Of a stretch of 45,432 bases of DNA, positions 8,898-44,341 are shown piece after piece. Within the stretch, counting starts at the first letter, position 1, and each line of letters starts with the position of its first letter. The DNA comes from a virus. A model generated the notes under the pieces. That model was not told the DNA's origin. It worked only from the letters and a program-made list of their open reading frames with translations, and searched no databases. The stretch spans positions 68,627 to 114,058 of IMG/VR virus record IMGVR_UViG_3300042261_000976; one strand, 5' to 3'. Both the position numbers and the translations under genes were made by a program.

Positions 8898-8945
8898 AAT
8901 TAAAAAAAAAAATTAATATATAACGAAAAATTTAATTTTGCAAAA

Positions 8946-9983
8946 ATGGATAATTATATACTAAAGTATGGAAACTACAAGATAAATGAAGGCAAGGAAT
9001 CTATTGAATTTCCTTTGTTTATATCTAATAAGCTAAGAAAGATATTACAAAAGATAATAACAGAACCCATAGCTAAAAAACTTCTAGAAACTAAAAATTC
9101 TATAGATATATCTTGGATAGATGCAGATCCAGATAGTAAAAGTGTATCTTATTTTCCATTAGACAGAATAAATAGAATAACATCAGATGCTCCAATTGAA
9201 ACAACATTAGAATTGTTAGCAAAATATTGGCCAACAAATCCTCCAGATGATTCAGATTTATGGAAAAGTAAATATAGACAAAGCATGTCTTGGGGAAAAT
9301 TAATTAATAAATTATTCCCTAATGAATTTTCAAACATGGACATCGATCGTTTCTATAATAGATATCGCCCGGAAATTGATGCAAGCAAAGGAGATGAAAG
9401 ATTTGAAGTAGTTCACGGCGACGATATTCGTTACTGGTATCATGAAGATAGATATAACGGAGGTTTGGGTTCTTGTATGAGACATAGCTCTTGTCAGAAC
9501 TATTTTGGTATATACACAAATAACCCTGACAAATGTGGGCTTTTAATATATCATGATGATGTTAAAAGTAAACTAATATTAGGTAGGGGTCTTGTGTGGC
9601 AAGGTTTATTAAAACCAAGCGGTGATACTCAAGAAAATAAAGAACAATATACATTATTAGATAGAGTGTATGTAGTTAGTGGAAGACCTGATCTAGAAAA
9701 TATATTTCATAAATATGCTATAGATCACGATTGGATATATAAAAAGAATAATGAATCATTTTTAATGAATGGAGTTAGAAAAACAACTTCAGTATCAATA
9801 CGTTTAAAACCAGTAGAGTATAAACAATATCCTTATATGGATACAATGATTTATTATACTCCAGCTACTGGAAGGGCGGCTTCATCTCCTGGAAATCCAG
9901 GAAGAGATCCTAATAATCCTTCTAAAATGTTTCAAAGATATACATTAAGGAGTCAGCATGGAGGAGCAGACGCTGTAAGATAA
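8946..9983 (+). CDS. Tandem paralog family member 1 (unknown function; CTS-like N-terminus)
   Basis: Shares conserved blocks with the next three ORFs: GRQ.MS.GKLINKLF, G(E/D)DIRYWY, GSCM(R/K), NP(E/D)KCGLLI, GRALVW, MDR(I/V)Y, LKP.EYKQYPYMDT, TGR(L/A)AS. N-terminus MDNYILKYGNYKINE resembles T4 CTS MKTYQEFIAE. Confidence 0.55.
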   Translation: MDNYILKYGNYKINEGKESIEFPLFISNKLRKILQKIITEPIAKKLLETKNSIDISWIDADPDSKSVSYFPLDRINRITSDAPIETTLELLAKYWPTNPPDDSDLWKSKYRQSMSWGKLINKLFPNEFSNMDIDRFYNRYRPEIDASKGDERFEVVHGDDIRYWYHEDRYNGGLGSCMRHSSCQNYFGIYTNNPDKCGLLIYHDDVKSKLILGRGLVWQGLLKPSGDTQENKEQYTLLDRVYVVSGRPDLENIFHKYAIDHDWIYKKNNESFLMNGVRKTTSVSIRLKPVEYKQYPYMDTMIYYTPATGRAASSPGNPGRDPNNPSKMFQRYTLRSQHGGADAVR

Positions 9984-10000
9984 AAAAAAAAATAAAAACA

Positions 10001-11059
10001 ATGACTAACGTTGCACCTTACTTGAATTTTATAAACGAAGACATAGATCCTATGACCGGTGAAGAGAAGAAACCAACTTTTGTAAAAGGAGAAAAGAAAC
10101 TTTTAAAATTATTCATATCTCCAAAATTAAGAGAAATTCTTGGTAAAATGTTAAAGGTTGGGGATTTCCAAGTTAAAGCAGTAGCCAATAGAATAATGGG
10201 ACTTTCAGAAACAGATGAGCTTTTTGATATATCTTATCTAGATGTAGAAAAAGGAAAAGATGACAGCATAACTTATATGCCAGCTAACAGAGTATGGTAT
10301 AAGAAAAATTTTGCAAGTCAAGAAGAAGCCAATAGAGTACCAAGCCCTGATGATGAATCATGGACTGGATCTGGCAGACAAAGTTTATCTATTGGTAAAT
10401 TAATCAATAGATTATTTGATAATTTCACAGACTTGTCTGTTCAAAAGTTTGTTAACGCTTATAAGGCTGAAATAGCAGCAACATTAATTTATAATAGATT
10501 TCAAGTGGTTAGAGGTGAGGATATTAGATATTGGTATAGTGAAAAACGTTTAGCTTCAACAGACGGTAATCTTGGTGGTTCTTGTATGAAATATGACAAT
10601 TCACAAAGAAATTGTCAGCCTTATTTTGAAATTTATGTTCAAAATCCAGAAAAGTGTGGTTTAGTTATATTAACAAATACAGATAATAAATTAATAGGAA
10701 GAGCTTTATTGTGGTCAGATTTAAGAAAACCAACAGGTAAAATTTTTATGGATAGAATTTATACTATAAAACAGTCTGACGAAGAATTGTTTAAAAAGTA
10801 CGCAGTGGAAAACGGATGGCTACATAAAGCAAGACAAGAAGCTCATAACGCCGCTTATGTTGAAGATGGTCAAGTAGTAAACAAATCAATAGCTTTACAG
10901 TTGAAACCAAAACAATATAAACAATATCCTTATATGGACACATTAAAATTCTATAATCCTGGTACAGGAAGATTAGCATCAGATCCTGGTAATCCAGTAC
11001 CTGGAATGCATAGATATAGATTAGAAAACGCAGACGGACAATCTCAAAGAATTGATTAA
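10001..11059 (+). CDS. Tandem paralog family member 2
   Basis: Same conserved blocks: MPANRV, GRQSLSIGKLINRLF, VVRGEDIRYWY, GGSCMKY, NPEKCGLVIL, GRALLW, MDRIYT, LKPKQYKQYPYMDT, TGRLAS. N-terminus MTNVAPYLNFINED (Y..FI.E, CTS-like). Confidence 0.55.
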   Translation: MTNVAPYLNFINEDIDPMTGEEKKPTFVKGEKKLLKLFISPKLREILGKMLKVGDFQVKAVANRIMGLSETDELFDISYLDVEKGKDDSITYMPANRVWYKKNFASQEEANRVPSPDDESWTGSGRQSLSIGKLINRLFDNFTDLSVQKFVNAYKAEIAATLIYNRFQVVRGEDIRYWYSEKRLASTDGNLGGSCMKYDNSQRNCQPYFEIYVQNPEKCGLVILTNTDNKLIGRALLWSDLRKPTGKIFMDRIYTIKQSDEELFKKYAVENGWLHKARQEAHNAAYVEDGQVVNKSIALQLKPKQYKQYPYMDTLKFYNPGTGRLASDPGNPVPGMHRYRLENADGQSQRID

Positions 11060-11074
11060 AAAAATATATAAAAA

Positions 11075-12166
11075 GTGGGAATTAAAAATTATACAGGTTA
11101 CATACTAAATGAGCAAGAGATTAACTTAAAAGATTCTCTTATGTTCTTTTCTCCGAAGTTTATATCTTTAATAAAAAAGATAAATTCTCCAATAACTAAG
11201 GATCTTATGGATTTATTGGACAATAGAGAATCAAGATTTCCTTTTTCTTATATAAATTTAAATGATGATATAGATTTTATAAGTGTAATGCCAGCAAATA
11301 GAATTGGTAGAATAGAAGGAATTACCCAGAAAGATTTAGAAAATCCGGATCCTAATAGTCCTGTATGGAACGAAAAGGGAAGACAAGTAATGAGGATAGG
11401 TGCTTTTGTAACTAGACTATTTCCAAAATATGCTGGCACAAAAGATCTAGAGAATTTTGTACAACAAATAAAAGGTATTCGTGATGCTGAAAATTATACT
11501 ATTAGATTAGTAAGAGGCGAAGAATTAAGAGCTTGGTATCACGTTAAAACATATTATAATCCTCATCCAGGAATGGAAGATCCTCCTGAAGATGAAGGTG
11601 TGATGGATATAAGAACGCCATTGATGAAATCATGTTTGAAACAACCAGAGAAACAACATTTCTTTGATATGTATGTTGAAAATCCAGATAAAGTTGGACT
11701 ATTAATAATGACAAATACAGATAATAAATTAGTTTGTAGAGCTCTTGTTTGGTTTGATGTATATATGGTAGATAATCCACAAAATCCCACAAAGGGCACT
11801 ATAATGGATAGAATATATTATACTCAAGAATCAGATGTGCATATATTTATAAATTACGCTAAAGAACATGGATGGTGGTATAAAACAAATCAAGCTAAGG
11901 GATGTGAAACTTATGTTGTTAATGGTCAAGTAATGGACAAACCATTAAGAACACAATTACCACATCATAGAATGTTTGCAAAATTCCCTTATATGGATAC
12001 ATTTTGTTATTATTCGCCAGATACAGGAAGATTAGCATCAACTAGAGGAAAACCAGCCAAGAATATGACTGGAAAGACTATAGGAGAATGCCCAGCAGGA
12101 AACTTTTTTGATAGATACTTATTACAGAAGGCCAATGGTGGTTTCAAAAAATTGCTTCCTAAATAA
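11075..12166 (+). CDS. Tandem paralog family member 3 (most diverged)
   Basis: MPANRI, GRQVMRIGAFVTRLF, LVRGEELRAWY, KSCLK, NPDKVGLLIM, CRALVW, MDRIYYT, FAKFPYMDT, TGRLAS. N-terminus MGIKNYTGYILNEQE. Confidence 0.55.
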   Translation: MGIKNYTGYILNEQEINLKDSLMFFSPKFISLIKKINSPITKDLMDLLDNRESRFPFSYINLNDDIDFISVMPANRIGRIEGITQKDLENPDPNSPVWNEKGRQVMRIGAFVTRLFPKYAGTKDLENFVQQIKGIRDAENYTIRLVRGEELRAWYHVKTYYNPHPGMEDPPEDEGVMDIRTPLMKSCLKQPEKQHFFDMYVENPDKVGLLIMTNTDNKLVCRALVWFDVYMVDNPQNPTKGTIMDRIYYTQESDVHIFINYAKEHGWWYKTNQAKGCETYVVNGQVMDKPLRTQLPHHRMFAKFPYMDTFCYYSPDTGRLASTRGKPAKNMTGKTIGECPAGNFFDRYLLQKANGGFKKLLPK

Positions 12167-12180
12167 TAAACTAAAGATAA

Positions 12181-13122
12181 ATGATTATCTATAATTATAA
12201 CAGTTTTCTAAATGAAGCAAAAGAAGTAGTTTTAGATATTTCTGATAAATTACAGAAAGTTCTAAAATCCATGAAGGATCCTATAGCAGAGGCTATATTA
12301 AAAGTATCAGTACACGGTGATACACCAGGAGTTTATGATATAGCCTATTTAGATTATTTCGACGAGAAAGATAAAAATGATAAAATTTCTTTCCTTCCAG
12401 CCAATAAAATAAGTCCTGATCTAGTTGGGGATCCTTTTAAGGCAAAGGGCAGACAAGAGATGTCAGTTGGTAGAATTGTAAATAAATTATTTCCAGAAAA
12501 ATTCACTCAACCACAAATAGAAGCTTTTGTTAATGACTTTAAGGCATCCTTGAAAAAATTCTTTATAAATTTACAATTGGTTCAGGGTGAAGAAATAAGG
12601 TATTGGTATTTAGAAACACGTTATGCTTCAAGAGCAGGTGATATTAATAGTTCGTGTATGAGAGGTCAAAAAGCTCAAACATTTTTTGATATTTATTGTA
12701 ATAATCCAGAAAAATGTAAATTGCTAATATTAAAAAATGATGACAATTTATTAATGGGTAGAGCTTTAGTTTGGTTTGAAATGCGTAAACCAACCGGGAG
12801 AGTTTATATGGATAGAATTTACACAATAAACGACGCAGATAAAAAATTATACATAGACCACGCTATAGCAAATAATTGGTTATATAAGAATAAACAAGTA
12901 ATGCATGATGCTTCTTATATAGATAATGGAAAACTAGTTTATAGTTCAGTAGCTATTCAATTAAAACCAGTGGAATATAAACAATATCCGTCTCTGGATA
13001 CTTTGAGTTATTATACTCCAAGCACAGGCAGATTGGGAAGTAACGCTGGAAATTATGTTCCAGGACATCCACGTTATCAATTAAATAGCACCACTGGAGG
13101 AGCAGCAAAAATAGATAGATAA
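12181..13122 (+). CDS. Tandem paralog family member 4
   Basis: LPANKI, GRQEMSVGRIVNKLF, LVQGEEIRYWY, SSCMRG, NPEKCKLLIL, GRALVWF, MDRIYT, LKPVEYKQYPSLDT, TGRLGS. N-terminus MIIYNYNSFLNEAKE (Y..FLNE). Confidence 0.55.
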   Translation: MIIYNYNSFLNEAKEVVLDISDKLQKVLKSMKDPIAEAILKVSVHGDTPGVYDIAYLDYFDEKDKNDKISFLPANKISPDLVGDPFKAKGRQEMSVGRIVNKLFPEKFTQPQIEAFVNDFKASLKKFFINLQLVQGEEIRYWYLETRYASRAGDINSSCMRGQKAQTFFDIYCNNPEKCKLLILKNDDNLLMGRALVWFEMRKPTGRVYMDRIYTINDADKKLYIDHAIANNWLYKNKQVMHDASYIDNGKLVYSSVAIQLKPVEYKQYPSLDTLSYYTPSTGRLGSNAGNYVPGHPRYQLNSTTGGAAKIDR

Positions 13123-13706: not shown

Positions 13707-13781
13707 TTCTGGAAAAATTCCATCTTTTTTTGTTAATATATATTTTTGTATTGTACCAAAAAAATACAAAATGTAAAAGAT

Positions 13782-17382: not shown

Positions 17383-17419
17383 AAACATTTTTGACATAAA
17401 AGATTTTATATATAGATAC

Positions 17420-17686
17420 ATGAAAACTTTTGAACAATTTGAAATTGATCCTTATGGTGAAGAAAATTGGAACGAAAAACAACCAAGATATGAAATTGGA
17501 GATGGAATAAGAATTAATGGATTGTTTCTAAGAATTTCTAGTTATAGAATGAGAGATGATGGTTATTACTGGTATGATTTAGAAGATGAAAGAAACTATA
17601 TAAGTAGAAGAGAGGATGTATTGAATCATATTAAACATCCTGAATGGTCGATTCAGAAATGTCTTAACCCATCAATAGAGGATTAA
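17420..17686 (+). CDS. Small protein with CTS-like N-terminus immediately followed by the DPYGEENW motif; candidate internal head protein
   Basis: The track ORF starts at 17369 and overlaps the upstream gene. The internal ATG at 17420 gives MKTFEQFEIDPYGEENW..., closely matching the T4 capsid-targeting sequence MKTYQEFIAE, and removes the overlap. Confidence 0.4.
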   Translation: MKTFEQFEIDPYGEENWNEKQPRYEIGDGIRINGLFLRISSYRMRDDGYYWYDLEDERNYISRREDVLNHIKHPEWSIQKCLNPSIED

Positions 17687-19568: not shown

Positions 19569-19638
19569 TTCAGTTCCAAAATGGAAAAAAAAGAGTTTTT
19601 TAGGTTAATATATATCAATAAAATAAAAGAGCCTAAAC

Positions 19639-22113
19639 ATGTATTATAAAAATGTTTTAATCATTGAAAATTCAACAAATGGCTTAAAAAAACTAAACGA
19701 ATCCATAGCTCCTTCCGGTAAAAAGCAATATATACTGGGCGGTATTTTCACGGAATTTAACGTTAAAAATAGGAATGATAGGATTTATCAAGCGGATAGA
19801 TTTTTGCCACATTTGGATGAATTGTTAGAAAGAAAAAAGACTCTGGGTGTTATATATGGTGAATTTGATCACCCGGATGTTTTTGACACTAGTTTGTCTA
19901 GGGTATCTCATACGGTTGAAAAGTGTTTCTTTGTCAGAGAAAAAAATAGAGTAGATGGTGAAATTAGATTACTAAATACTCATTGGGGTAGAGAAGCACA
20001 AGCATTAATCGATGATGGATGCCCAATTTTTGTTTCTTCACGTGCCGCCGGTGTAACTGAGTCGAATGGTGAAGTAACTATTAAAAAACTATTTACATAC
20101 GACGCAGTTGCTGACCCTGGGTTTAGTTCTGCGAAAATGGAACTTCGCACCTTAAATGAATCGCTAGGATTTAACGAGAGTGCCAACTTTAGGATATATG
20201 ATATATCCGACGAGTCAAAAATAAACGAGTTGTTCAATATGGATAAAAATGAATTTGTAACCAAAGAACAGATGGAAAAGTACTCAAATTATTTGACCGA
20301 GCAAATCACAAAAACAAAAAGTGAAATTAATGAAGCCATCCAAAAGGGAGACTTCGATCCAGCAAAGTTATCTGATTTATATGACAAGTATGATTCCTTC
20401 CAGGAAGGCTTCAAGAAAATAGCTTCCTATCTTGACTACTTAGCAGAAACAATGCAAGTCTTAGTCCAAGAAAACAAAAAAATCAAGAAAACAAACGAAA
20501 AATTAGAAGGCAAATTAGATAGAACAAAAGCTAAAACAGAAAAAATTATTGAACATAATGACTATTTAGCTGGAGAACTTGAAAAAGCCATCGGGTACAC
20601 AGAAAAAGCCATCGGGTACACAGAATATGTAGCTGAAGCAGTTGACAAATCTATTGATTATTCAAATTACATAGCTGAGACATTAGATAAATCTATTGAT
20701 TTCTCTGAATATATCGCAGAAAACGTTGATAATACAATTAAATATTCTGAATATATCGCTGAAAATCTTGATAAATCTATTGACTATTCTGAGTATGTTG
20801 CAGAAAATCTAGAAAAGAATATCGCATATGCTGAATATATTGCAGAGCATGTTGATAATAACATCAAATATGCTGAATATATCGCTGAACATGTCGACAA
20901 TAATATTAAATATGCTGAATATATAGCAGAACACGTCGATAACAGTATCAAATATACAGAATATGTTGGAGAACAATTAGATAACAGTATTAAGTATTCA
21001 GAATACATTGCTGAAAATCTAACTGATTCTATTGCCTATGGTAATTACTTAGCAGAAGCAATTGACAAGAATGTTGAGTACGGTAAGTATCTCGCAGAAA
21101 AATTAAATAGTGGTTCATTTGGAAGATTAAACGAACAAGTACAACCACCAGCACAAAAAATGGGTAACTTCAAGACCGATTCAGTAGCCAAATACTATGA
21201 TGAAAATGAGAACGATATGACTCAAGCACAACCAGTACAGGGAGCTCAAGCACAAGGTGCACAACCAAGAATGGCTCAACCAGTACAAGGTCAAGCTCAA
21301 CCAAGAGCCCAAGCCCAAGCTCAACAAGTACAGGGTATGGATTTAGAAGGTGAAGAAAGTGAGGATATGGATGTTCAAGGAGTAAATGCTGAAGAAATTC
21401 AAGACATTGATGATAAGGCAGAACTCACTCCAGGTCAAGTTGTCAAGATTGATGACGACAAAACAGGTGAAATTTTAGCAGTTAATGCTGATAATGGAAT
21501 AGCTGTTGTTAAATTATCTGACACAGGTGAAGTCCAAGAGATTCAAGAATCCAGATTATCTATCATAGGTGATAAGATTTATGAATCAGAAAACACATTA
21601 AAGAAACTAATATTAAAGCAAATAAATGAGTCCAAAAAACGTGAGGCATCGAAAGATAACGAACCTCATTTCTTACTTTTCTTAACTGAAAAGAAAAAGG
21701 CTGCTTATTACAACCTTTCACAACAGGATAAAGAAAAAGTAATCGTTGCAATGAACGAAAGCAAAGGTTATACAACAGAAAGTGAAGTTCTCGCTATCAT
21801 GGCTAAAGCATTAACTACAGCCACAAGAAGTTTTAATGAGACGTTGATCGACAATATCCCAGGCGATCTAAGACCAATATGGGAAAGTTTACGTCCCGAG
21901 GTTCAAGGTAGTATTATAAATAGTGCGCAATTCTATACTAATTTGACAGAGGATAAAATGGAAAGTTTCTGGAATTCTAGAGACCTTCATAAATATGCAA
22001 AGAAAAACATGGGTAAAGTGACCTTGTTAACAGAAAGTAATAACAAATTTGATAACACTAAACTCTCTGATGATCTTGTAGATGCATATTTAAAAAGAAT
22101 TAATCAAAGATAA
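19639..22113 (+). CDS. Prohead protease (T4 gp21-like, N-terminal ~200 aa) fused to a long scaffold/core-like C-terminal extension
   Basis: GGIFTEFNVKNRNDRIYQ vs T4 gp21 EGIFLQAEVVNRNKRLYP; GEFDHP vs GELNHP (catalytic His); FVSSRAAGV vs GVSSRGLG (catalytic Ser). The C-terminal 600 aa hold coiled-coil tandem repeats (EYIAENVDNSIKYSEY, ~10 copies), a Q/A-rich tract and an acidic region, i.e. a gp22/scaffold-like character. Confidence 0.75.
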   Translation: MYYKNVLIIENSTNGLKKLNESIAPSGKKQYILGGIFTEFNVKNRNDRIYQADRFLPHLDELLERKKTLGVIYGEFDHPDVFDTSLSRVSHTVEKCFFVREKNRVDGEIRLLNTHWGREAQALIDDGCPIFVSSRAAGVTESNGEVTIKKLFTYDAVADPGFSSAKMELRTLNESLGFNESANFRIYDISDESKINELFNMDKNEFVTKEQMEKYSNYLTEQITKTKSEINEAIQKGDFDPAKLSDLYDKYDSFQEGFKKIASYLDYLAETMQVLVQENKKIKKTNEKLEGKLDRTKAKTEKIIEHNDYLAGELEKAIGYTEKAIGYTEYVAEAVDKSIDYSNYIAETLDKSIDFSEYIAENVDNTIKYSEYIAENLDKSIDYSEYVAENLEKNIAYAEYIAEHVDNNIKYAEYIAEHVDNNIKYAEYIAEHVDNSIKYTEYVGEQLDNSIKYSEYIAENLTDSIAYGNYLAEAIDKNVEYGKYLAEKLNSGSFGRLNEQVQPPAQKMGNFKTDSVAKYYDENENDMTQAQPVQGAQAQGAQPRMAQPVQGQAQPRAQAQAQQVQGMDLEGEESEDMDVQGVNAEEIQDIDDKAELTPGQVVKIDDDKTGEILAVNADNGIAVVKLSDTGEVQEIQESRLSIIGDKIYESENTLKKLILKQINESKKREASKDNEPHFLLFLTEKKKAAYYNLSQQDKEKVIVAMNESKGYTTESEVLAIMAKALTTATRSFNETLIDNIPGDLRPIWESLRPEVQGSIINSAQFYTNLTEDKMESFWNSRDLHKYAKKNMGKVTLLTESNNKFDNTKLSDDLVDAYLKRINQR
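20560..21070 (+). repeat. In-frame tandem repeats inside the protease-scaffold gene (2 x 21 bp, then ~10 x 48 bp)
   Basis: GAAAAAGCCATCGGGTACACA x2, followed by repeated units of the form GAATATATCGCAGAAAACGTTGATAATACAATTAAATATTCT encoding (S/A)EYIAE(N/H)(V/L)D(N/K)(S/N)I(K/D)Y. Confidence 0.75.
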
Positions 22114-22190: not shown

Positions 22191-23975
22191 ATGAATTTTA
22201 TAGTTGACAGTGCGAAAGCAATAAAGAAATGGCAACCTATTCTCGACGCTCTTAGGGTAACTGATGATGACAAGAGAGCTTGGATGTCAGAGTATGCTGA
22301 AATGCATCAAATGAATGAAAATGTTGGCTATGCCACATTAAATCAAAAAGGTATGGGTCAAGTATTTGCTCCAGTAGTAGGTACAGTTCCAGGTGCAACA
22401 TGGCAAGATGGTCATGGCGCAATTGGTAGCGGTGACGTTGCTCAAAACCTCCTTCCAGTAGCTATGAAGATCGCTGCTCAAACAATCGGTTTGGATTTAG
22501 TAGCTGTTAAACCAACAGCATCACCAAGAATCGAGTTGTTATTCGTTGACTTCAAATATGACAACGCTTATGCAAACGATCCTAATCGTGAAGATATCGA
22601 TCCAAGACAAAGACCACTTGTTTTCAAATTAGCCACAAGCACAAGTGCTGGTGATTTAGCTTTAAAACAAGCTCTTCAATTACAACTCAGTCTTTTGAGT
22701 ATTCAAGAAAGAGTTGGTGGATTATCAAAAAGAACATGGGTTCACTTAGGAGCTGGTTGTACAGTTGCTCAATTAACTAATTTACCAGACAATTTACCAG
22801 CCGCTGGTTACTACAATTTTATGGAATTCTTAGGATTTTCAAGAATTGATGGACACCCAATGTATAGAATTTACAGACAAGCCGGTTTCTCAGTTGGTTC
22901 AATGACACCACAAGACGGTTCTGCATGGGATTCTACATTAAACACTTTCCCACAAACAGGAGCTATCACAGACGTTCTTATCGCAAGTGGTATTACCACA
23001 GTATCAGGAACATCAACATCTCAAGTCACAGGAAACACAGCAGCTGCTGGTGCAACTGTTGAATTAGTATCCTTACTCGAAGATCATATTCCAGGATTCT
23101 CCGCAGGTTGGACATCCAATATGGAAAATGGTTGGGAAGGCCCAATGACAAGATACCAAGATGAAAAAACCTATCCAGGTGTTATCGGTCCTGACGTATT
23201 TACAAAATCCGTCCAAGTTGGTGACATCGAAATCTCCTCAACATTGAAGAGAACCCAAATTGAAGACATCAAGGCTTCAACTGGTATGGATATTGTTCAG
23301 AAATTGGAAGGTGTTCTTATTAATGAATTAACTCAGGTTATTTCTAAGGAAATCGTAGGTAAAATCAGAAAATTAGCTCTTGCTAATAGAGATTCCTACA
23401 CAGCACCAAAAGCAACTGACGGTGTTACATGTAAATTCGACTTAAACGTTGACTCTTACATCGCATCACTTTCAAGTGGTACTTATGGTGGAGCAATGGG
23501 TGAAACAACTCACTCAATCCAAAGAAAGCTTATTGCTAAGATCAATAACGCTTCTAACTTCATCGCAACTGATGGTAGAATTGGACCAGCTCAATATTTG
23601 GTTACAAACGGTAACTTAGCTTCCGTTATCCAAGATATCGCTGGTTATACGATCAATCCAGTTAACGCTGGTAAATTAAACACCAACGGTCAACTTTATC
23701 CAATGGGTAATGTTGGACAGATTGCAATCTATGTAGATCCTTACATGAGATGGGATGATAACTTCATCTATATGGGTAGAAAGAATAGCGTTGACCAACC
23801 AGGTCTTCTCTTTATTCCTTACTTAATGGCTCAATCAATTAGCTTAATCAGTGAAGCTACCTGGGCACCCAGGATGTTAATTAGATCAAGATATGCAGTA
23901 GCTGATATCGGATTCTTCCCGGAAAAGCAATTCATGGCAATTAAAGTTACTGATAGTAACGGTGTTCTTATCTAA
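22191..23975 (+). CDS. Major capsid protein (T4 gp23-like, HK97-fold lineage)
   Basis: AKAIKKWQPILDAL vs T4 gp23 AELLNKWKPLLEG; AMKIAAQTIGLDLVAVKPTASPRIELLFV vs VRRAIPNLIAFDICGVQPMNSPTGQVFAL. Likely maturation cleavage at QMNE|NVGY, analogous to T4 FLTE|AEIGG. Followed by the strongest terminator in the window. Confidence 0.85.
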   Translation: MNFIVDSAKAIKKWQPILDALRVTDDDKRAWMSEYAEMHQMNENVGYATLNQKGMGQVFAPVVGTVPGATWQDGHGAIGSGDVAQNLLPVAMKIAAQTIGLDLVAVKPTASPRIELLFVDFKYDNAYANDPNREDIDPRQRPLVFKLATSTSAGDLALKQALQLQLSLLSIQERVGGLSKRTWVHLGAGCTVAQLTNLPDNLPAAGYYNFMEFLGFSRIDGHPMYRIYRQAGFSVGSMTPQDGSAWDSTLNTFPQTGAITDVLIASGITTVSGTSTSQVTGNTAAAGATVELVSLLEDHIPGFSAGWTSNMENGWEGPMTRYQDEKTYPGVIGPDVFTKSVQVGDIEISSTLKRTQIEDIKASTGMDIVQKLEGVLINELTQVISKEIVGKIRKLALANRDSYTAPKATDGVTCKFDLNVDSYIASLSSGTYGGAMGETTHSIQRKLIAKINNASNFIATDGRIGPAQYLVTNGNLASVIQDIAGYTINPVNAGKLNTNGQLYPMGNVGQIAIYVDPYMRWDDNFIYMGRKNSVDQPGLLFIPYLMAQSISLISEATWAPRMLIRSRYAVADIGFFPEKQFMAIKVTDSNGVLI

Positions 23976-24030: not shown

Positions 24031-24082
24031 ATGATTAAACTATAAATCAAATTATTAATATATAATAAAAAGAATTTATCAT

Positions 24083-24412
24083 ATGAATAACTTGAAGAGA
24101 TATAGAGAAATAAATGAGGATGTTGAAGAAAATAAATTCGTAAAATTTAATGGTAGGGATTCGTTTTCTAGAACTATCGAAGTAAAATCAGAAGATGCCA
24201 AAAACCAAAAGTTCCAAGACGAACTCAGTTACGCTATAGGTCTTATTAAAGAACATATAGAAGATGGTTTAGGTTATCAAATGAAAAAGAAATACAAAAT
24301 TAAAAATATGACTTTCAACGTAGACGATAAAGGAAAAGAATATTGTAAGATAGAATTCTTAGATACGAATACAAACGATATTGATCCTTACGGTGAAGAA
24401 GATTGGAGATAA
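24083..24412 (+). CDS. Small protein ending in the DPYGEEDW motif
   Basis: C-terminus is ...NDIDPYGEEDWR*. N-terminus MNNLKRYREINE parallels MNNLKTYEEF of ORF 38640..38975. A TATAAATC late-promoter-like motif lies ~40 nt upstream (24041..24048). Confidence 0.35.
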   Translation: MNNLKRYREINEDVEENKFVKFNGRDSFSRTIEVKSEDAKNQKFQDELSYAIGLIKEHIEDGLGYQMKKKYKIKNMTFNVDDKGKEYCKIEFLDTNTNDIDPYGEEDWR

Positions 24413-25227: not shown

Positions 25228-25310
25228 CTTGCAAAAATACAAAATTATTTTATATTAGAAAAATTTTCGTTAATTTTGTATTCCAATTTTAGAAATTAAT
25301 ATATAGAAAT

Positions 25311-29084: not shown

Positions 29085-29189
29085 AACTCTATATATTAAA
29101 ATAGAATTTCTTAAAATTTTTGTTTAATTCAAAAAAAAGTTATAATTTTGTACTGATAAAAAATTATAAACTTAAAAAGAAAAAAAACT

Positions 29190-33114: not shown

Positions 33115-33891
33115 CTATTTTTTATTTATTTTAGTTTTTTCTATTATTATAAAATTCTTCGATTTGTTATATCTTAAAATACTAGAAAAACTAAAGTTTT
33201 TTTCTTTTGAAAATTCTTTTAATTCATCTCTGCTTTTTATTTCAAATATATTATCATTGTTTTTTATTTTATAACAAACTGAATTTCCGTTATTTAATCC
33301 AAATCTTTCTATTTTCCATTTTTCTTTTAATTGTTCGGAATGAGTTTTATCATAAAAAGGATTTTTTTCTCCAATTTTAGCTTTTCTTATTTTTTCTTTT
33401 GATTCTTCTGTATGTTCAAAAATATGTCCTTCGTGTCCAATTAAAGATTTACTAATATTTTTTCTTCTCTCTTCTTTTTTCCTTTCTGACATATTTCCAA
33501 AAGCTATTATTACAGATTTTGATATTTTATCTTTTGTTGAATTATTATGCTTAAATCCACTTTGTCCTTCCCCACCATCGCTAAAATTAACAAGTGGTCC
33601 ATTTTCCATTCTTCCTATTTTTAATATTAATTCTTTTTCTTTCATAAAAGCTTTGTTTTCCGATAAATTATCATATACCTTTTTAACAATAGGAGTAAGA
33701 CCTAATTCTTTAATTTTACTAATTTTATTTAATTTATAAGAATTATTAATTGAATGATTCAAATGATAGAACATTCTATTGCCAATTCCTTTGCCTACAT
33801 AAAAAGGTTCAAAATCAAACTCTAAATTTTCATAAATGAATTTTCCTGGTTTTCTAGGATCTAAATAGATATAAACATAATATTCTTCCAT
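33115..33891 (-). mobile_element. GIY-YIG homing endonuclease (Seg / I-TevI-like, free-standing)
   Basis: N-terminal YVYIYLD...EPFYVGKGIGNRMFYHL (GIY...YIG...R...H). C-terminal NUMOD3-like helices (SKSLIGHEGHIFEHTEESKEKIRKAKIGEKNPFYDKTHSEQ). Located directly after the truncated DNA polymerase gene. Confidence 0.65.
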
Positions 33892-33905
33892 ATATACCGT
33901 AAAAA

Positions 33906-34000
33906 TTGGCGAACCCTAACTGCGGTGCGTCCACTGACTTTTTCAAGTTCTACACTAGCCCAAACGGTCGGAGCGCTCTTTTAGGTTTTACTCGCCAAAG
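33906..34000 (-). other. GC-rich ~95-nt structured element between the polymerase fragment and the homing-endonuclease gene
   Basis: Local GC ~55% against ~30% background. Bounded by a 7-bp inverted repeat TTGGCGA...TCGCCAA. Contains the palindromes GAGCGCTC and AGCGCT. No coding frame. Confidence 0.35.
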
Positions 34001-34032
34001 TTTATATATTTAATTCAAAAAATCAATTTTTT

Positions 34033-35547
34033 CTAATCCGAATATTCTAGTTCCATTATTAAATCTTCTTCTGCTGCCTTCAATTCTCTCTTATGTTCTT
34101 CCAATTTATCATGATCTTTCATCATGAAATCTTTATATTTCTTTCTATCTCCATATACATCAGTCATTACTTGATTAACTATACCAGTTTCATTCTTGAA
34201 CACAGTATCGTTTAACAATTTAATATCTGTAGGTTCTAGTTCAACTCTATGTCCATTAAATACTGCAAATTCTTTATTAGGTGATAAAACTCCTTTATAA
34301 GAATCTGCTGATATATTGAACATTCTCATACAAGTAGGGTACAAACTTGCGAAGTCATAACAAGCTGTCCACATCGCCATTCCCTTGATTGTATCTTTTA
34401 CCCAACCACCTTTAACTGCTTTTTCTAAAGATTCTATTACTGTATCTGGTAAACTTTTTTCTAATTTACAAAGAATAACATTTTTTTCTTCTTTAAGTTT
34501 TCTTCTTAAGATGCCTTCAGTAACAGGTAAAGTAGAATAAGCATCTAATATCTTTATTCTAGATAATGTAGCGATGCCATAAAGAATATCAACCCATTTA
34601 GTAGTATCATGTATTTTTTGAACTAGAATAGAGTCAACAGCATTATAAAAAATGAATTTCTTATAATCTGTAGATGCTAATGTTTTAAGTGTTCCTTCGT
34701 AATTGATTTTCTTTACACCAAGAATACCATCAGAAACAAAGTCTAAACTGCTTGCCTCTTTTACTTTAATGATACTATTCCATTTTTCATATAATTCCTG
34801 ATAGTCAACTATAATTCTATGTCCTGGTAATTCGCAGAAAGATTCTCTTTTTTTACCACTTTTATTATCTCTTTTAAATGGAGGTCTAAGAACTCTCGTT
34901 GGTGATGCTGCGGTAGGATCAACTCCTATTTTTCTAGCTCTATTAACAAGAAATACCCAGTCGTATTCTGTAAAGTTCCAACCTGTTATGATTGGCATTT
35001 TTGGTACAAATTTCTCAAAGAAATTTAGTAACATTTCATATTCACTCTTATATCTTACGAATTTGAAATCATAGTCAGCGTTGAATTTAACAAAATAATT
35101 ATTAATGTCTTCTCTAATGGATTTTTCTTGCTCAGCACTCAAAGCGTCAAGCCCCATTACCATTACTTTATTCTTATTGACTATAGATATTGATTGTATT
35201 GCGCTTTCAGCTAATTGAGGTTGCGGCTTTTTATCCAGAATTTCGTTTTCAATATCAACAAAGAAAATTTCTGGCTCTACATATTTCATTACAATTTCTT
35301 GTTCTTCTTTCGGAAGACTATCAATAAAATCGTATACAGAATATCTATCTGGAAATCTTGTATAGACTTTCTTTACTGCTTTACCATCCCATGTAACATA
35401 TTGACCGTCTTTATCTCTATCATCGTCAGAGCAAACAACGTATTTGGTTGGATTTGGCCATGTATAGTACTTATGTTTTATCCATCCACCTTCACCGATG
35501 TAAGACAACATGAGTTTTTGATTCTTATATTCGTAATCTACAACCAA
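34033..35547 (-). CDS. Family-B DNA polymerase, N-terminal fragment only (T4 gp43 '43A'-like: 3'-5' exonuclease domain through polymerase motif A)
   Basis: Exo I IFFVDIENE (T4 CDIEVTG); Exo II MPIITGWNFTEYDWVFLVNRA (T4 PAIFTGWNIEGFDVPYIMNRV); Exo III FIFYNAVDSILVQKI (T4 YISYNIIDVESVQAI); motif A YDFASLYPTCMRMFNIS (T4 FDLTSLYPSIIRQVNIS). Ends ~70 aa after motif A. Motifs B and C are absent. The annotated start is a TTG at 35547; the first ATG is at 35511. Confidence 0.75.
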   Translation of the reverse strand: MVVDYEYKNQKLMLSYIGEGGWIKHKYYTWPNPTKYVVCSDDDRDKDGQYVTWDGKAVKKVYTRFPDRYSVYDFIDSLPKEEQEIVMKYVEPEIFFVDIENEILDKKPQPQLAESAIQSISIVNKNKVMVMGLDALSAEQEKSIREDINNYFVKFNADYDFKFVRYKSEYEMLLNFFEKFVPKMPIITGWNFTEYDWVFLVNRARKIGVDPTAASPTRVLRPPFKRDNKSGKKRESFCELPGHRIIVDYQELYEKWNSIIKVKEASSLDFVSDGILGVKKINYEGTLKTLASTDYKKFIFYNAVDSILVQKIHDTTKWVDILYGIATLSRIKILDAYSTLPVTEGILRRKLKEEKNVILCKLEKSLPDTVIESLEKAVKGGWVKDTIKGMAMWTACYDFASLYPTCMRMFNISADSYKGVLSPNKEFAVFNGHRVELEPTDIKLLNDTVFKNETGIVNQVMTDVYGDRKKYKDFMMKDHDKLEEHKRELKAAEEDLIMELEYSD

Positions 35548-36366: not shown

Positions 36367-37143
36367 TTATTCATAGCTTTCTATTATGGCTCTTTTTTTA
36401 TCTGGAAGTGGGTTATCCTCTGTCCCCCTAATAATTGGAGCTTCCTCTTCTTCGTCAAGTTCTTCTTCCAAATCTTCTGTTACCAGTTTGATTTGTTTTT
36501 GATTAAAACTCTTCCAATATTTTATCCAACTTTCATTTGGCATTTCTCTTTTGGTCCCATCATTTGTTCCTTCTGGATTATCTTCTGTGCCAAAATCTGT
36601 AGTCCCTTCATCGGTGTTTATAGTATCATCATCGTCATCGTCTTCTTCGTCGTCCCCTAGTTCTATGTCTATATAATCAGGATCTTTATCTTCATCATCG
36701 TCAGGTGAAAAAGCATCTATAGGATCTTCTTCTTTACTTCCATAAACATCACCACCTATTGTAGTCTCATCAAATTCGTCAGATTCATATATTTTCTGTT
36801 TAGTTGCCCAAACTGGAGTTCCTTCAAACCCTTGTACTGTTGTAATAGGTTTTTCTTCTTTTACCTTTGTTAATTCTCTCATAACTTCTCTAAGAGAATA
36901 TTTCTTTATTTCTCCAGTCATTCTATCGGCTATAAATATGCTTTCATTTTGAATACTATCAATAAAACCATCTATTTTCTTGGTTTGTATATGTTTACCT
37001 ATTCTAAGAAAATCCATAGTTGGAATAGATCTATTTATAACCTGCTTTTTTGGTGCGCTTGGAAACAAATCAGTATCACCCCCTATTCCTTTACCTTTAT
37101 TTTCTTTACTTTCATTAACGAAAGCGTCGAATTTTTTAATCAT
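36367..37143 (-). CDS. Highly acidic protein with CTS-like N-terminus (candidate internal head protein)
   Basis: N-terminus MIKKFDAFVNE|SKEN fits the K-x-[YF]-x-x-F-[IV]-x-E pattern of T4 CTS MKTYQEFIAE. Poly-D/E tracts (DDDEDKDPDYIDIELGDDEEDDDDDD). Confidence 0.4.
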   Translation of the reverse strand: MIKKFDAFVNESKENKGKGIGGDTDLFPSAPKKQVINRSIPTMDFLRIGKHIQTKKIDGFIDSIQNESIFIADRMTGEIKKYSLREVMRELTKVKEEKPITTVQGFEGTPVWATKQKIYESDEFDETTIGGDVYGSKEEDPIDAFSPDDDEDKDPDYIDIELGDDEEDDDDDDTINTDEGTTDFGTEDNPEGTNDGTKREMPNESWIKYWKSFNQKQIKLVTEDLEEELDEEEEAPIIRGTEDNPLPDKKRAIIESYE

Positions 37144-37170
37144 GTCGTGATGTTTATTTTTTACTATATA

Positions 37171-37638
37171 TTAATTTATATTTTCAATACTTGGTATATT
37201 TTCCATTTTTGCTAATTTTCTCTTTAAATCATTTAGTTCTTTATCGAACTCTGCCTGTGAATATTTGCTAAAACCTAAAAATCCTCCAGTGCATATAACA
37301 CTAATATTTTTTTTCTTTATAGCCCAAATAGATCTAGCTTCTTCTTTATTTCTTGCTTTAACCCATCCAATTCTAAAACCCCTATCATTAGGGCCGCCAT
37401 CAGTATATTCTCTTATTTCGTATATTTTTTCTTCCTTTTTATCTCCTTCTGATAATTTTTGTAATGTTCTTTCATATTCCGGTCTTTCGTGGGCATATTT
37501 AAAATTGTGATTATCTGCCAATTCTTTTAACTTCGATTTAATAATTTTAGTTTTTTCATCGTCAAACTCCCAAGACTCTTCGCCATATGGATCCACCGGA
37601 TTAATGTCTTCTTTCAAATATTCACAAAAACTTATCAT
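37171..37638 (-). CDS. Small protein with N-terminal DPYGEESW motif
   Basis: MISFCEYLKEDINPVDPYGEESWEFDD... Start overlaps the upstream stop (ATGA). Confidence 0.35.
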   Translation of the reverse strand: MISFCEYLKEDINPVDPYGEESWEFDDEKTKIIKSKLKELADNHNFKYAHERPEYERTLQKLSEGDKKEEKIYEIREYTDGGPNDRGFRIGWVKARNKEEARSIWAIKKKNISVICTGGFLGFSKYSQAEFDKELNDLKRKLAKMENIPSIENIN

Positions 37639-38624
37639 TTATTCCTTAGAGTTTCTTTTTCTGCTGCAGATAATCCATTATAACCAACTCTATTTACTTT
37701 ATCGAGAATGGCATCAATTTCTTCTTGTTTTGTCCTATATGCTTTTCTTGGTATTTCTTTTCTTGGATTCGGTTTAGGTTTTGCTCTTCTCCAATCATCG
37801 CCCGGATAACCTTCTTGACCTCTAAAATTAGGATCGAATTTTCTTATCACCTTATCAGCCCATCCTTTTTGAATAGCGTAATAAATAAAGAAACATACAG
37901 CAACAGATACTAATATGCTAGTTAAAGAAATTTCTTCTCTTATACCAAAAACTTCATCATAAGCTCTCGTTACTCTTTCTTCATTGGCATTACAAATATC
38001 TTTGATTTGTCTATAATATCCTGGGTTTCTAACAACAGCTATGCTAAGTCTTGGCGAATCAAAAACTTCTCTAACTTCACTCTCTGGTAATTTTATACCT
38101 TCGAATAAGTCTTTAATTTTACCTATAAATTCCATGGCTTTATTGATAAATCCCTTACCAAATCCTTCATTTAGAAGATCGTCATATTTTATTACGTGTT
38201 TCATATTTTCTAAAATATTTTTACCTGTTATACTATTCGATGATAAACTACGTTTCTCTTTAGGCACTTCGCTTATAGGCATATCTGGTATATCTGTACC
38301 TCTTTCTGATCTTTCTTTGGAATCTCTAGTATAACCTAAACTTTTTTTATTATCATCTCTTACAAATGTTTCATAAGAGTCTATATGTCTATCTAATGGA
38401 TTGTCCCACCAGAATAAATTATTCATTTCTTGTTTTCCTTTATGTTTAACTAAATCATCGATAACTCTATCACCTACATCCCCACTCATATGAGTATGCT
38501 CGGGACCTACTTGAATATCTTGAGATCTATTTATTTCATCTCTAATTCTTTTAAGTTGATCCACAGTAGTTTGTCGTGGTAAACTCTCATTTAATTTATT
38601 ATATTTGTTATATCTTTTTGACAT
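37635..38624 (-). CDS. Hypothetical protein with one C-proximal transmembrane segment
   Basis: Hydrophobic stretch LTSILVSVAVCFFIYYAI near aa 245. No recognisable domain. Confidence 0.3.
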   Translation of the reverse strand: MSKRYNKYNKLNESLPRQTTVDQLKRIRDEINRSQDIQVGPEHTHMSGDVGDRVIDDLVKHKGKQEMNNLFWWDNPLDRHIDSYETFVRDDNKKSLGYTRDSKERSERGTDIPDMPISEVPKEKRSLSSNSITGKNILENMKHVIKYDDLLNEGFGKGFINKAMEFIGKIKDLFEGIKLPESEVREVFDSPRLSIAVVRNPGYYRQIKDICNANEERVTRAYDEVFGIREEISLTSILVSVAVCFFIYYAIQKGWADKVIRKFDPNFRGQEGYPGDDWRRAKPKPNPRKEIPRKAYRTKQEEIDAILDKVNRVGYNGLSAAEKETLRNK

Positions 38625-38639
38625 TTTTTTTATAAATTT

Positions 38640-38975
38640 TTAACTTCTATATCTATGGCGTTGTCTTGGTCTATAAGTACTACTACTTCTAGGTCCAGAA
38701 CTATAACTAGATGCTTTACCATCATATCCGCCTGTTCTTTCATAATAATCTGCCTGCGCTTTCATTTGTTTTGCTACAACTTCTTCAGCGTCTGGATCTA
38801 ATTCTTCCCCATAAGGATCATTTGGATCATATTCTCTTGGTTTATTGGCAGTCTTAGCAACTTTAGCCCATTCTTTTTCCAGGTCTTTTTTTTGTTTTTG
38901 ATATTCTTCATCTGGAGTGAGTTCCTTTTTGCTCCAAGGCCATTTGAATTCTTCGTATGTTTTTAAGTTGTTCAT
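38640..38975 (-). CDS. Small protein with CTS-like N-terminus and DPYGEE motif (candidate internal head protein)
   Basis: MNNLKTYEEFKW... matches KTYEEF against T4 KTYQEF. Internal ...DPNDPYGEELDPD. Confidence 0.4.
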   Translation of the reverse strand: MNNLKTYEEFKWPWSKKELTPDEEYQKQKKDLEKEWAKVAKTANKPREYDPNDPYGEELDPDAEEVVAKQMKAQADYYERTGGYDGKASSYSSGPRSSSTYRPRQRHRYRS

Positions 38976-38976
38976 C

Positions 38977-39333
38977 TTATTTCTTACTTTTTAGATATTC
39001 TTCTATCGTATTAAAATCATTAAAGACATTTTCTGCTATATCTTTTATGTTTGGCATTCCGTCTATCATATTTTCTCTGATCTCTGTTATTGCTTCAAAT
39101 ACCTCATCATCATAATGTTCAAGAGCAGTCATAAATTGATCCATTTCTGGAATAGATTTTTCCAGGTCTTTACATATGAATTCTATAGTATCTCTGAGCA
39201 TAGATATATGTTGTTTTCTTTTTAATATATCTTTCAAAACTTCATCTATCTTTTCCTCGTAATTAATATCTACTCCAGATGATTGCCATTCTTCATTTTC
39301 GAATGTCTTATATGTTTTTAATTTCTTACTCAT
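38977..39333 (-). CDS. Small acidic protein with CTS-like N-terminus; paralog of the N-terminal domain of 39326..40210
   Basis: MSKKLKTYKTFENEE... Helical domain aligns with the upstream gene (LKDILKRKQHISMLRDT.../VEGLVRIKIYMQMLEDT...; DQFMTALEHYDDE/DAFMNALYSKDE). Confidence 0.4.
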   Translation of the reverse strand: MSKKLKTYKTFENEEWQSSGVDINYEEKIDEVLKDILKRKQHISMLRDTIEFICKDLEKSIPEMDQFMTALEHYDDEVFEAITEIRENMIDGMPNIKDIAENVFNDFNTIEEYLKSKK

Positions 39334-40210
39334 TTTTTATTTTGGCTATTCTTGGTTTTTTAGTTTTTGGTGGTTCCTTAGATAAATATTCTGAAGGAAC
39401 TCCTTCCATGTTTACACCATCTTTTGATGCTTTTATTGTAGCATCATATAAATCATAACAATCTTCTTTTTCTTTATTCTTTCTTATCACTGTACATTTT
39501 CTTCCATTATAAACTGACGCATGTCCTTTTATTCCAGAAATATAAACCACATCTCCACTCTTAAATTTATCAGAACTTTCTTCCCTTTTCTTAGTATATT
39601 GACTCATCTTTTTTTGTAGATCAGCTAGTGTTGGTTTTCTTTGTTCGTTTACTTTTCTTTTTCTTTTTAATTGATCTTCCGGTTCGCCTTTTACTTTCAT
39701 TATGTCAATATATTCATTACCATCGTCCTCATCTTCATCTTCTTCTGGTATATCTTCTTCTGAACCTTCGTCATCATCTTCTTCGTCATCGTCTTCTTCA
39801 TCTTCTTCTGTAGCGTTTTTACCTGATAATATTACACTCCAATTACCATCTATGTATTCTTTAATATTACTTAAAGTAGCATTCATTTCTTTGATATTAT
39901 CTACAGCTTCTGACATTTCAAAAGTAGTTGATAAATCTTCGACCAATCCAGCTAAAAATTCATCTTTACTATAAAGAGCATTCATAAAAGCGTCTATATT
40001 AGGTGGAAATTGTTTATCTAACATGTCATAAACTTTTTCAGTAGTATCTTCTAACATTTGCATATAAATCTTAATCCTAACAAGTCCTTCAACAATTTCT
40101 TTTATTCTGAAATTTATTTCTTCATCTGATGGATCTGGTCTATTTACGTTTTGACCGGTTTTCTCGTATGATTCAAAAGTTTTTATTTTTCTTGATATTT
40201 TCATGTACAT
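39326..40210 (-). CDS. Acidic protein with CTS-like N-terminus, poly-D/E tract and basic C-terminal domain
   Basis: MYMKISRKIKTFESYE... Tract EEDEEDDDEEDDDEGSEEDIPEEDEDEDDG. C-terminal KFKSGDVVYISGIKGHASVYNGRKCTVIRK (KOW/SH3-like appearance). Overlaps the downstream gene by 8 nt. Confidence 0.4.
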   Translation of the reverse strand: MYMKISRKIKTFESYEKTGQNVNRPDPSDEEINFRIKEIVEGLVRIKIYMQMLEDTTEKVYDMLDKQFPPNIDAFMNALYSKDEFLAGLVEDLSTTFEMSEAVDNIKEMNATLSNIKEYIDGNWSVILSGKNATEEDEEDDDEEDDDEGSEEDIPEEDEDEDDGNEYIDIMKVKGEPEDQLKRKRKVNEQRKPTLADLQKKMSQYTKKREESSDKFKSGDVVYISGIKGHASVYNGRKCTVIRKNKEKEDCYDLYDATIKASKDGVNMEGVPSEYLSKEPPKTKKPRIAKIKNE

Positions 40211-40228
40211 ATATATTAATTTATAAAA

Positions 40229-44335: not shown

Positions 44336-44341
44336 AATTTT

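Follow-up and report, generated by a model that had tools for sequence, protein, structure and literature searches.

Do the N-termini of a cluster of viral genes act as capsid addresses, and what would be delivered by them? The cluster lies on the minus strand, at positions 36367-40210, of a 45,432-nucleotide (nt) stretch of viral DNA (IMG/VR record IMGVR_UViG_3300042261_000976, positions 68,627 to 114,058; the whole stretch is called the window below). Its products begin with short leaders resembling the capsid-targeting sequence (CTS) of the internal proteins (IPs) of phage T4, and the original prediction took them to be small, strongly acidic candidates for injected proteins that might mimic DNA. 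The leader proves not to be peculiar to this cluster: about 10% of the open reading frames (ORFs) of the lineage begin with it, and enzymes of metabolic type are among them. It resembles a unit repeated in tandem in a scaffold-like region encoded in the same window, and its ending is that of two candidate prohead-protease sites. Because of these scaffold-repeat and cleavage-site identities capsid targeting is the best supported reading, and we put the chances that the leaders are cleavable capsid-targeting propeptides mimicking the scaffold repeat at about even.

The source of the window

The window (G+C ~30%) has a T4-type head module on the plus strand, with a head-closure protein, a Portal_T4 protein (E=3e-71), an S77/S80 protease and a gp23-like capsid protein; homologues of gp20, gp21 and gp23 are all encoded, as in T4. 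The capsid protein (594 amino acids, aa) has 82% identity with its counterpart in LR756501, the 735-kb phage termed the "largest phage genome"; the identity is 48-51% with the proteins of 634-642-kb genomes and ~28% with those of the Lak megaphages. All of these belong to the Mahaphage clade, whose predicted hosts are Bacteroidetes (PMC7162821), and judged by these identities the source of the window is a Mahaphage-clade megaphage. The window and LR756501 are syntenic; their head proteins are 83-91% identical, whereas the cluster genes are just 45-63% identical or have been replaced.

Leaders of the six-gene cluster

The ORFs and N-termini were found as first described, in six consecutive and tightly packed genes (Table 1; genes are named by the first coordinate given there). 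All six leaders contain an aromatic pair (F5/F8 in 36367, F4/Y7 in 37171, Y5/Y8 in 37635, Y7/F10 in 38640, Y8/F11 in 38977 and F10/Y13 in 39326), including those of 37171 and 37635, which had not been quoted before. A candidate processing site follows the pair directly in 36367 (VNE) and 37171 (LKE) and is shifted by one residue in 37635 (LNE).

Two start codons are available to gene 39326. The ATG at 40210, from which the N-terminus would read M(YM)KISRKIKTFESYE, falls on the final base of a promoter-like element, TTAATATATA (40210-40219), while the ATG at 40204 stands 5 nt downstream of the element, a spacing also found at genes 25311 and 26703. The public JGI gene call has an identical 292-aa product, matching the 40204 start. 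Since the upstream ATG overlaps the element, the 5-nt spacing recurs and the public call agrees, the start is most likely at 40204.

Of the six proteins, described as small and strongly acidic, only three to four are strongly acidic; two are neutral or basic, and the lengths run from 111 to 329 aa (isoelectric points (pI) 4.3, 5.9, 9.0, 7.8, 4.6 and 4.7 in gene order from 36367 to 39326). The poly-D/E tracts of 36367 and 39326 and the paralogy of 38977 and 39326 (BLASTP E=3e-7) were borne out. Searches of the six proteins against Pfam and PHROGs gave no usable match except DUF6576 at the C-terminus of 37635. In several orthologues of 39326 (P0004, P0005, P0006 and L001 42248-43318 (-)) one to three DnaJ-type CxxCxGxG zinc-finger units lie inside the acidic linker; the window copy has none.

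In four relatives the locus is bounded on one side by variable upstream genes and on the other by the DNA polymerase. The block always begins with a pair like 39326 and 38977 and contains a 36367-like gene; the other genes vary in number and identity, giving a block of 5 to 7 genes. In LR756501, 37171 is replaced by a different gene, and the orthologue of 38640 has a full leader, ...SFDEFVNE then G; the leaders of 37635 orthologues are MITKFNKYDKVFES and MNNYNKYEKIFES. The expectation of a locus with changing gene content is thus upheld by the synteny comparison at the level of moderate plasticity, which recalls the T-even IP loci, where gene content varies between close relatives. The cluster is next to the DNA polymerase; ~14 kb separate it from the head module, which is encoded on the other strand.

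Table 1. Positions in the window of the leader genes, head genes, repeats and short motifs (a slash marks a candidate cleavage site)
Position	Strand	Feature	Leader, motif or site
36367..37143	-	258 aa, pI 4.3; N-terminal ~100 residues conserved; GTEDNP motif twice; poly-D/E tract	full leader MIKKFDAFVNE, then S
37171..37638	-	155 aa	MISFCEYLKE, then D; DPYGEESW directly after
37635..38624	-	329-aa basic protein; C-terminal DUF6576	MSKRYNKYNKLNE, then S; motif shifted one residue
38640..38975	-	111 aa, pI 7.8	MNNLKTYEEF (aromatic pair only); DPYGEE motif inside
38977..39333	-	118-aa paralogue of the 39326 N-terminal domain	MSKKLKTYKTFENE
39326..40204	-	292 aa; variable linker, helical domain (~27-127), poly-D/E tract, SH3-like C-terminus	MKISRKIKTFESYE
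8946..13122	+	four tandem basic paralogues, 313-363 aa, pI 8.6-8.9; weak GNAT-like fold	...YKINE/G, ...NFINE/D, ...YILNE/Q, ...SFLNE/A
17420..17686	+	88 aa	MKTFEQFEIDPYGEENW..., then directly DPYGEE.W
19639..22113	+	prohead protease (S77/S80), 824 aa, fused to a scaffold-like coiled-coil region	KLNE/S (residues 18-21), TLNE/S (171-174)
20617..21120	+	twelve tandem 14-residue repeats, seen at protein level and as a DNA period of 42	Y-[SAT]-E-Y-[IV]-A-E-[NH]-[LV]-D-x-x-I-x
22191..23975	+	gp23-like major capsid protein	candidate propeptide site ...EYAEMHQMNE/N (residues 35-44)
24083..24412	+	109 aa; TTAATATATA in front	MNNLKRYREINE, then D; C-terminal DPYGEEDWR
8913-8922, 13733-13742, 19605-19614, 24055-24064, 25296-25305	+	promoter-like element	TTAATATATA
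29090-29099, 37165-37174, 40210-40219, 44448-44457	-	promoter-like element	TTAATATATA
17447-17470, 24383-24406		DPYGEE copies	
28182-28205, 28581-28604, 37567-37590, 38799-38816	-	DPYGEE copies	

Enrichment and conservation of the leader

ORF N-termini (first 22 or first 18 residues) were scanned with the motif pattern [FYW]xx[FYWL][ILVM]xE; within the cluster, 36367 and 37171 have the full pattern [FY]xx[FY][ILV]xE. In the window 5 of 42 ORFs match within 18 residues, and the same five within 22; residue shuffles averaged 0.2 matches, and none of 400 reached five. The 22-residue scan of the first 250 kb of LR756501 gave 27 matches in 307 ORFs, compared with 2.3 +/- 1.5 after shuffling and 3.2 predicted from internal windows; the 18-residue scan gave 25 in 305, compared with 1.7 expected. 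Related contigs (~1 Mb) add 141 matches in 1435 ORFs. The frequency in the lineage is about 8-12% of ORFs, ~tenfold over shuffled controls, and it is clear that the enrichment is real and beyond chance.

The lineage consensus is M-I-K-K-[FY]-[ND]-[NE]-F-[LI]-N-E-[ANSG]. Leaders are 10-15 residues long, the full ones ending in [ILV]-N/K-E, and are shared by unrelated protein families. At N-terminal matches to [FYW]xx[FYWL][ILVM]x, Glu comes next in 50% of cases and Asp in 3%, compared with 11% and 9% for internal matches. The residue before Glu is Asn in 29% of leaders and 9% of internal matches, and the residue after it is N, A, S or G in 66% of leaders. I, L and V interchange, and synonymous codon use at the motif positions is that of the genome as a whole; therefore selection acts on the protein.

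Among individual families, the strict motif stands at residue 5 in 39 of 42 homologues of 36367. The family of gene 10001 (196 homologues) has the pattern at residue ~6 in 77 of the 120 homologues listed, even at 30% identity. In the 39326 family the leader [KL]-K-T-[FY]-E-x-Y is kept in 7 aligned homologues (38-48% identity) and is followed by an indel-rich Gly/Pro/Lys linker and the helical domain. An AlphaFold (AF2) model of 39326 has a predicted local distance difference test (pLDDT) score <50 for residues 1-19, 77-92 for the helical domain and <50 for the remainder, and in the model of 10001 (pLDDT 89.8) residues 1-30 are of low confidence. The leader is, as far as these models go, a detachable element outside the folded domains.

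Strict-pattern leaders were absent from the sampled 45-50-kb regions of LR756500, Lak-B1 and PTm1. These three are AT-rich relatives without a strong repeat array, and their known or predicted hosts are Bacteroidetes. The Lak-B1 region has a modest excess of a looser K-x-[FY]-x-x-[FY] pattern. Several proteins of Lak-B1 30001-80000 (L123) share another motif near the N-terminus, ...K-L-x-E-S-L-F-D-D-x-D-D.

Other leader carriers

A Pfam scan of 102 leader-bearing proteins returned 10 leucine-rich repeat (LRR) proteins, 3 PPK2 proteins and 2 glutamyl-tRNA synthetases (GluRS), together with methyltransferases, radical-SAM enzymes, an NAD synthase and an aldolase. In the GluRS proteins the catalytic domain is preceded by a conserved extension of 25 residues, reading ...NLTEFEQFRLLMKE then S and ...NITEFDKFISLMKE then S. 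Leader genes often stand in runs of small genes with no known function, far from the head module.

The window adds four candidates for packaged proteins, the leader-bearing paralogues at 8946-13122. The MKTFEQFEI start noted at 17420 is real; its ATG lies 5 nt after TTTATATATA, and this is probably the true start of the 88-aa gene. A further carrier, 24083, adjoins a denV-like pyrimidine-dimer glycosylase gene at 24422-24850 (Pfam Pyr_excise, E=3e-23); in T4 denV adjoins ipII and ipIII, and the resemblance may be a coincidence.

A scaffold repeat and candidate cleavage sites match the leader

Each of the twelve repeats in the scaffold-like region of the protease fusion contains the leader pattern; the whole ORF has 14 matches, of which 12 are in the 14-residue register. 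The sequence YSEYIAE of the scaffold is close to YQEFIAE of the T4 CTS. Orthologues in LR756501, LR756502 and LR745206 have 10-13 repeat units, and that of the distant LR756500 has two degenerate ones. From 80 related loci 57 complete protease-scaffold ORFs were obtained, all but one with 4-16 units, and the array is kept in relatives down to 46% protease identity. Among the ORFs neighbouring the head genes in the 80 loci, the strict-pattern count is 0-4 per locus, mostly 0 or 1.

All 57 relatives have [LVIM]-N-E-S immediately after the protease domain, and in 25 of 26 [IML]-N-E-N stands in the propeptide of the capsid protein. Leaders, protease/scaffold junction and capsid-protein propeptide therefore have a common Asn-Glu ending, which is lineage-specific. 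The junction and the propeptide are the kinds of site at which T4-type proteases cut themselves and the capsid protein. A single protease specificity would account for Glu being favoured over Asp as well as for the Asn held in common, and helix propensity alone explains these poorly; judged from its candidate sites, the prohead protease is probably Glu-specific.

The Tenacibaculum phage PTm1 has a gene annotated as a fused "prohead core scaffolding protein and protease" and the same order of portal, protease-scaffold and capsid protein, with a protease domain 32% identical to that of the window. Unlike the window lineage, PTm1 has no YxEY[IL]AE repeats, and its sampled 45-kb region has no strict-pattern leader ORFs. 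Since this cultured phage has neither repeats nor leaders, its virion data are uninformative on the leaders.

Comparison with T4 and with giant phages

The 10-residue CTS of T4 IPIII suffices for packaging, residues 4 and 7 serving in targeting and residues 8 and 10 in processing; the cut by gp21 falls after L/I-X-E and is prevented when residue 10 is Asp (PMC9026906). The T-even internal proteins are diverse and have the CTS as their sole common part (PMC3012670). The likeness to this sequence, which had been noticed at the outset, is specific: the pattern covers the four functional positions (4, 7, 8 and 10), and in 37171 F4, Y7, L8 and E10 are in register with MKTYQEFIAE/A. When applied to T4, the pattern matches IPII and IPIII at residue 4 and the gp23 maturation site FGSFLTE/A at residues 59-65; it is not matched at the start of IPI (MKTFKEF...ITE/A), where the aromatic pair alone is present, as in three of the six genes here. 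Both in T4 and in this lineage the tag is at the extreme N-terminus of otherwise unrelated proteins, with its aromatic pair at i, i+3, and both the T4 CTS and the full leaders continue with [ILV]-x-E and a small residue.

There are also differences. The tag heads about 10% of ORFs here and a handful of proteins in T4; 1-6 extra residues often precede it (MNNLK..., MIKK...), and Asn is favoured before Glu. The T4 IPs are small and basic, whereas most of the cargo here is acidic or enzyme-like, four of the six cluster proteins having a pI of 4.3-5.9 and lengths reaching 329 aa. We know of no description for T4 of a tag that copies a tandem scaffold repeat.

The giant phages phiKZ, 201phi2-1 and SPN3US have dozens of head proteins and a diverged gp21-type protease that cuts after Glu and undergoes C-terminal autoprocessing; SPN3US gp53 and gp54 represent paralogue families with conserved N-termini, as here (PMC5694885). 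Their propeptides are mostly >100 residues with no common short tag, whereas the leaders here are of 10-15 residues; furthermore, their cleavage motif is A/S/G-X-E rather than [ILVM]-N-E, and the protease is not fused to a repeat scaffold (PMC5694885). The 240-kb phage SPN3US is reported to have some 50 proteins in its head, with ejection proteins amounting to >40 MDa (PMC7411985); on that figure, since this phage already has about 50 head proteins, a large cargo capacity is plausible.

The promoter-like element and the DPYGEE.W motif

The element TTAATATATA has nine exact copies in the window, all in the sense orientation just upstream of ORFs. The genes downstream include the protease gene, 8946, 24083, 36367 (copy 37165-37174) and 39326 (copy 40210-40219). 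At three copies, and at a one-mismatch copy at 17405-17414, the start codon follows exactly 5 nt after the element, a spacing that suggests leaderless or nearly leaderless mRNAs. Of 44 copies in the 250 kb of LR756501, 41 lie between genes, and ORFs of great length (656-2372 aa) stand downstream of many. Going by this element, the cluster and head genes share a promoter type.

A second motif, D-P-Y-G-E-E-x-W, has six copies in five window proteins and 35 copies in 27 of 307 LR756501 ORFs. Its position is free; it is found just after the leader, at the extreme C-terminus (within 15 residues of it in 80/218 cases) or between repeated domains, and in L022 the six repeats of one protein (673 aa) all end in ...RLKHMDIDPYGEEDW. 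The motif occurs in L001 and in >100 IMG/VR loci (L002-L114), some viral contigs being rich in it; about 9% of ORFs contain it, and it is confined to these phages. It is absent from the sampled regions of LR756502, LR745206, LR756500 and Lak-B1. In 596 Gbp of cellular genomes it is at chance level (72 single matches), and a literature search for DPYGEE returned unrelated eukaryotic papers only. Cleavage at this motif as a phiKZ-type G-x-E site was set aside, as in 80/218 cases the cut would remove just 0-5 residues. DPYGEE.W is probably a short docking motif for a common partner.

A proposed route and its alternatives

In the proposed route, the six cluster genes would share with the prohead protease gene a promoter of the TTAATATATA type. 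The leader, with its aromatic pair at i, i+3, followed in full leaders by [ILV]-N/K-E, would copy one 14-residue Y-x-E-Y-I-A-E scaffold unit and hence would co-assemble with the scaffold core inside the procapsid. The Glu-specific protease would then cut after [ILVM]-x-E, as at its own scaffold junction and at the capsid-protein propeptide, and free the mature protein in the head. The freed proteins would leave with the DNA at infection, or the poly-acidic ones might fill the core in the manner of T4 gp67. What the sequences show is the motif, with its enrichment, its conservation, its separateness from the folded domains and its agreement with motifs of the head proteins; that leaders dock to the scaffold and are cleaved, and that the proteins are packaged and injected, is inferred. 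The whole would amount to a T4-type CTS employed throughout a proteome, for which the sequence offers a plausible docking partner.

Several observations weigh against this route. An [ILV]-x-E in or near the leader is absent from 38640, 38977 and 39326, half of the cluster. An hhalign comparison of the scaffold-repeat region with T4 gp22 detected no homology (probability 0.2). The scaffold repeats are nearly identical wherever leaders occur, so that their co-variation across lineages gives the route no weight either way. The pattern is a generic amphipathic-helix motif (hydrophobic at i, i+3, i+4), which ~1% of internal 22-residue windows match, and the estimated chance that a 14-residue scaffold repeat matches it, ~0.7%, is small though not negligible. 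The promoter-like element is not specific to leader genes, since in LR756501 only 9 of the 36 first downstream genes have a leader. Literature searches found no virion proteomics for this uncultured clade. Most of all, a tag on ~10% of ORFs implies >100 proteins per genome, including GluRS, PPK2, methyltransferases and NAD synthase, and so many cargo proteins are to our knowledge unprecedented, T4 tagging only a handful; numbers and enzymes of this kind favour a more general role for the tag.

Such a role, a lineage-specific N-terminal tag unrelated to the capsid (for a chaperone, a protease adaptor, another assembly or compartment, or as an oligomerisation helix), with its scaffold likeness due to a shared amphipathic-helix pattern, is possible, and we consider it a serious if somewhat doubtful alternative. 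The spread of the tag over GluRS, PPK2, NAD synthase, methyltransferases and many LRR proteins is in keeping with it, as are the grouping of leader genes among small genes of no known function away from the head module, the generic hydrophobic spacing and the lack of a special association of the promoter element with leader genes; for a chaperone, the 735-kb relative has an ORF whose N-terminus looks Hsp70-like. It leaves unexplained why Glu is so strictly favoured over Asp and is followed by a small residue, why the Asn-Glu ending is held in common with the junction and the capsid propeptide, and why the match to the T4 CTS extends to all four functional positions. That the leader pattern is instead a by-product of AT-rich codon bias, or of mRNA selection around the start codon in a host without Shine-Dalgarno pairing, is scarcely credible. 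K, N, F, Y, I and E do have AT-rich codons, and several genes start 5 nt from the promoter-like element; against this, shuffling of residues 2-22 removes the pattern (27 observed against the 2.3 +/- 1.5 given above), codon use at the motif is that of the genome with I, L and V interchanging, and the AT-rich sampled regions of LR756500, Lak-B1 and PTm1 have no strict-pattern enrichment.

Two further explanations concern the acidic proteins alone. Their acidic tracts are of low complexity and are predicted to be disordered (pLDDT <50 in 39326), and both length and sequence vary freely between homologues; a Foldseek search of the 39326 model against PDB returned nothing below E=2. With tracts predicted to be disordered and no structural match, DNA mimicry and an anti-restriction role are unsupported. 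Ocr is a folded, rigid mimic of B-DNA that shares with the acidic cluster proteins net negative charge only, whereas their charge lies in disordered low-complexity runs. A closer T4 parallel than Ocr is the core protein gp67, with its poly-D/E tail ...EGEEPEDEDEDEDDEDSDDKDDKKDEDSDEDEDDE, and because gp67 has a similar run, acidic composition is no ground for Ocr-like mimicry. It is therefore very improbable that these proteins block host restriction or defence as DNA mimics: pI values of 4.3-4.7 and D/E runs would fit, and composition is all that does so, there being no rigid DNA-shaped surface predicted and no Pfam or PHROG match. T4 gp67, gp68 and the acidic internal peptides do provide a precedent: there a poly-D/E tract, as found here, belongs to a protein taken into the prohead core and processed by the protease. 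Alternatively, then, 36367 and 39326 could be core or scaffold accessory proteins of this kind, degraded to acidic peptides and not injected as effectors, which we regard as unlikely. The tail of gp67 and the predicted disorder of the tracts here agree with this, as does the 36367 family, present in 42 relatives with its N-terminal 100 residues highly conserved and synteny kept. The location of the genes, ~14 kb from the head module on the other strand and beside the DNA polymerase, does not, and the 6 homologues of 39326 that were found are few for a core assembly protein. Furthermore, neither Pfam nor PHROGs gives any similarity between the cluster proteins and gp67 or gp68, and gp67 itself does not match the strict leader pattern.

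Other features of the window

Apart from the leader genes, the portal (gp20-like) protein has, at residues ~515-608 (window 19240-19531 (+)), a ~90-residue glycine-rich tail in which GGGAQFGG is repeated; tblastn of the portal beyond residue 516 against LR756501 detected no homologous sequence. The regions 29826-31406 (-) and 33115-35547 (-) hold further genes of note. A RimK-type ATP-grasp enzyme has a ~350-residue N-terminal extension. The family-B DNA polymerase ORF, of 504 aa with a TTG start, is apparently a partial polymerase; it adjoins a 258-aa ORF with the N-terminus YVYIYLDPRKPGK that resembles, by look alone, a GIY-YIG homing endonuclease. A polymerase split by the GIY-YIG gene and continuing in ORF 32180 was considered and set aside, the equivalent ORF of a relative having a class II tRNA-synthetase domain. 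A collagen-like gene at 44340-45432 (-) encodes >280 residues of Gly-Thr-Ser and Gly-Ser-Ser triplets and runs past the window end; the listed ORFs 44587 and 44833 are wrong-frame readings of it.

Significance

Megaphages are known from metagenomes only, and most of their genes have no assigned function. If the leaders are capsid addresses, the tag would sort a tenth of megaphage genes into one class, virion cargo or core; it would predict the specificity of the protease, and would suggest how a very large capsid is filled and the host taken over. The T4 capsid-targeting principle would be ancient and scalable, with mimicry of a scaffold repeat as a mechanistic reason that could be tested in T4, and the tag and protease could be tested in E. 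coli without phage culture. A bolder and more tentative form of the proposal is that this branch of the Mahaphage clade labels about a tenth of its proteome (well over 100 proteins, among them LRR, GNAT-like, PPK2 and GluRS proteins) with a scaffold-mimic leader for loading into the procapsid, trimming at [ILVM]-N-E and delivery as a toolkit, DPYGEE.W acting as a further sorting or docking signal. If that were true, the delivered set of virion proteins would be far larger than that of any known phage.

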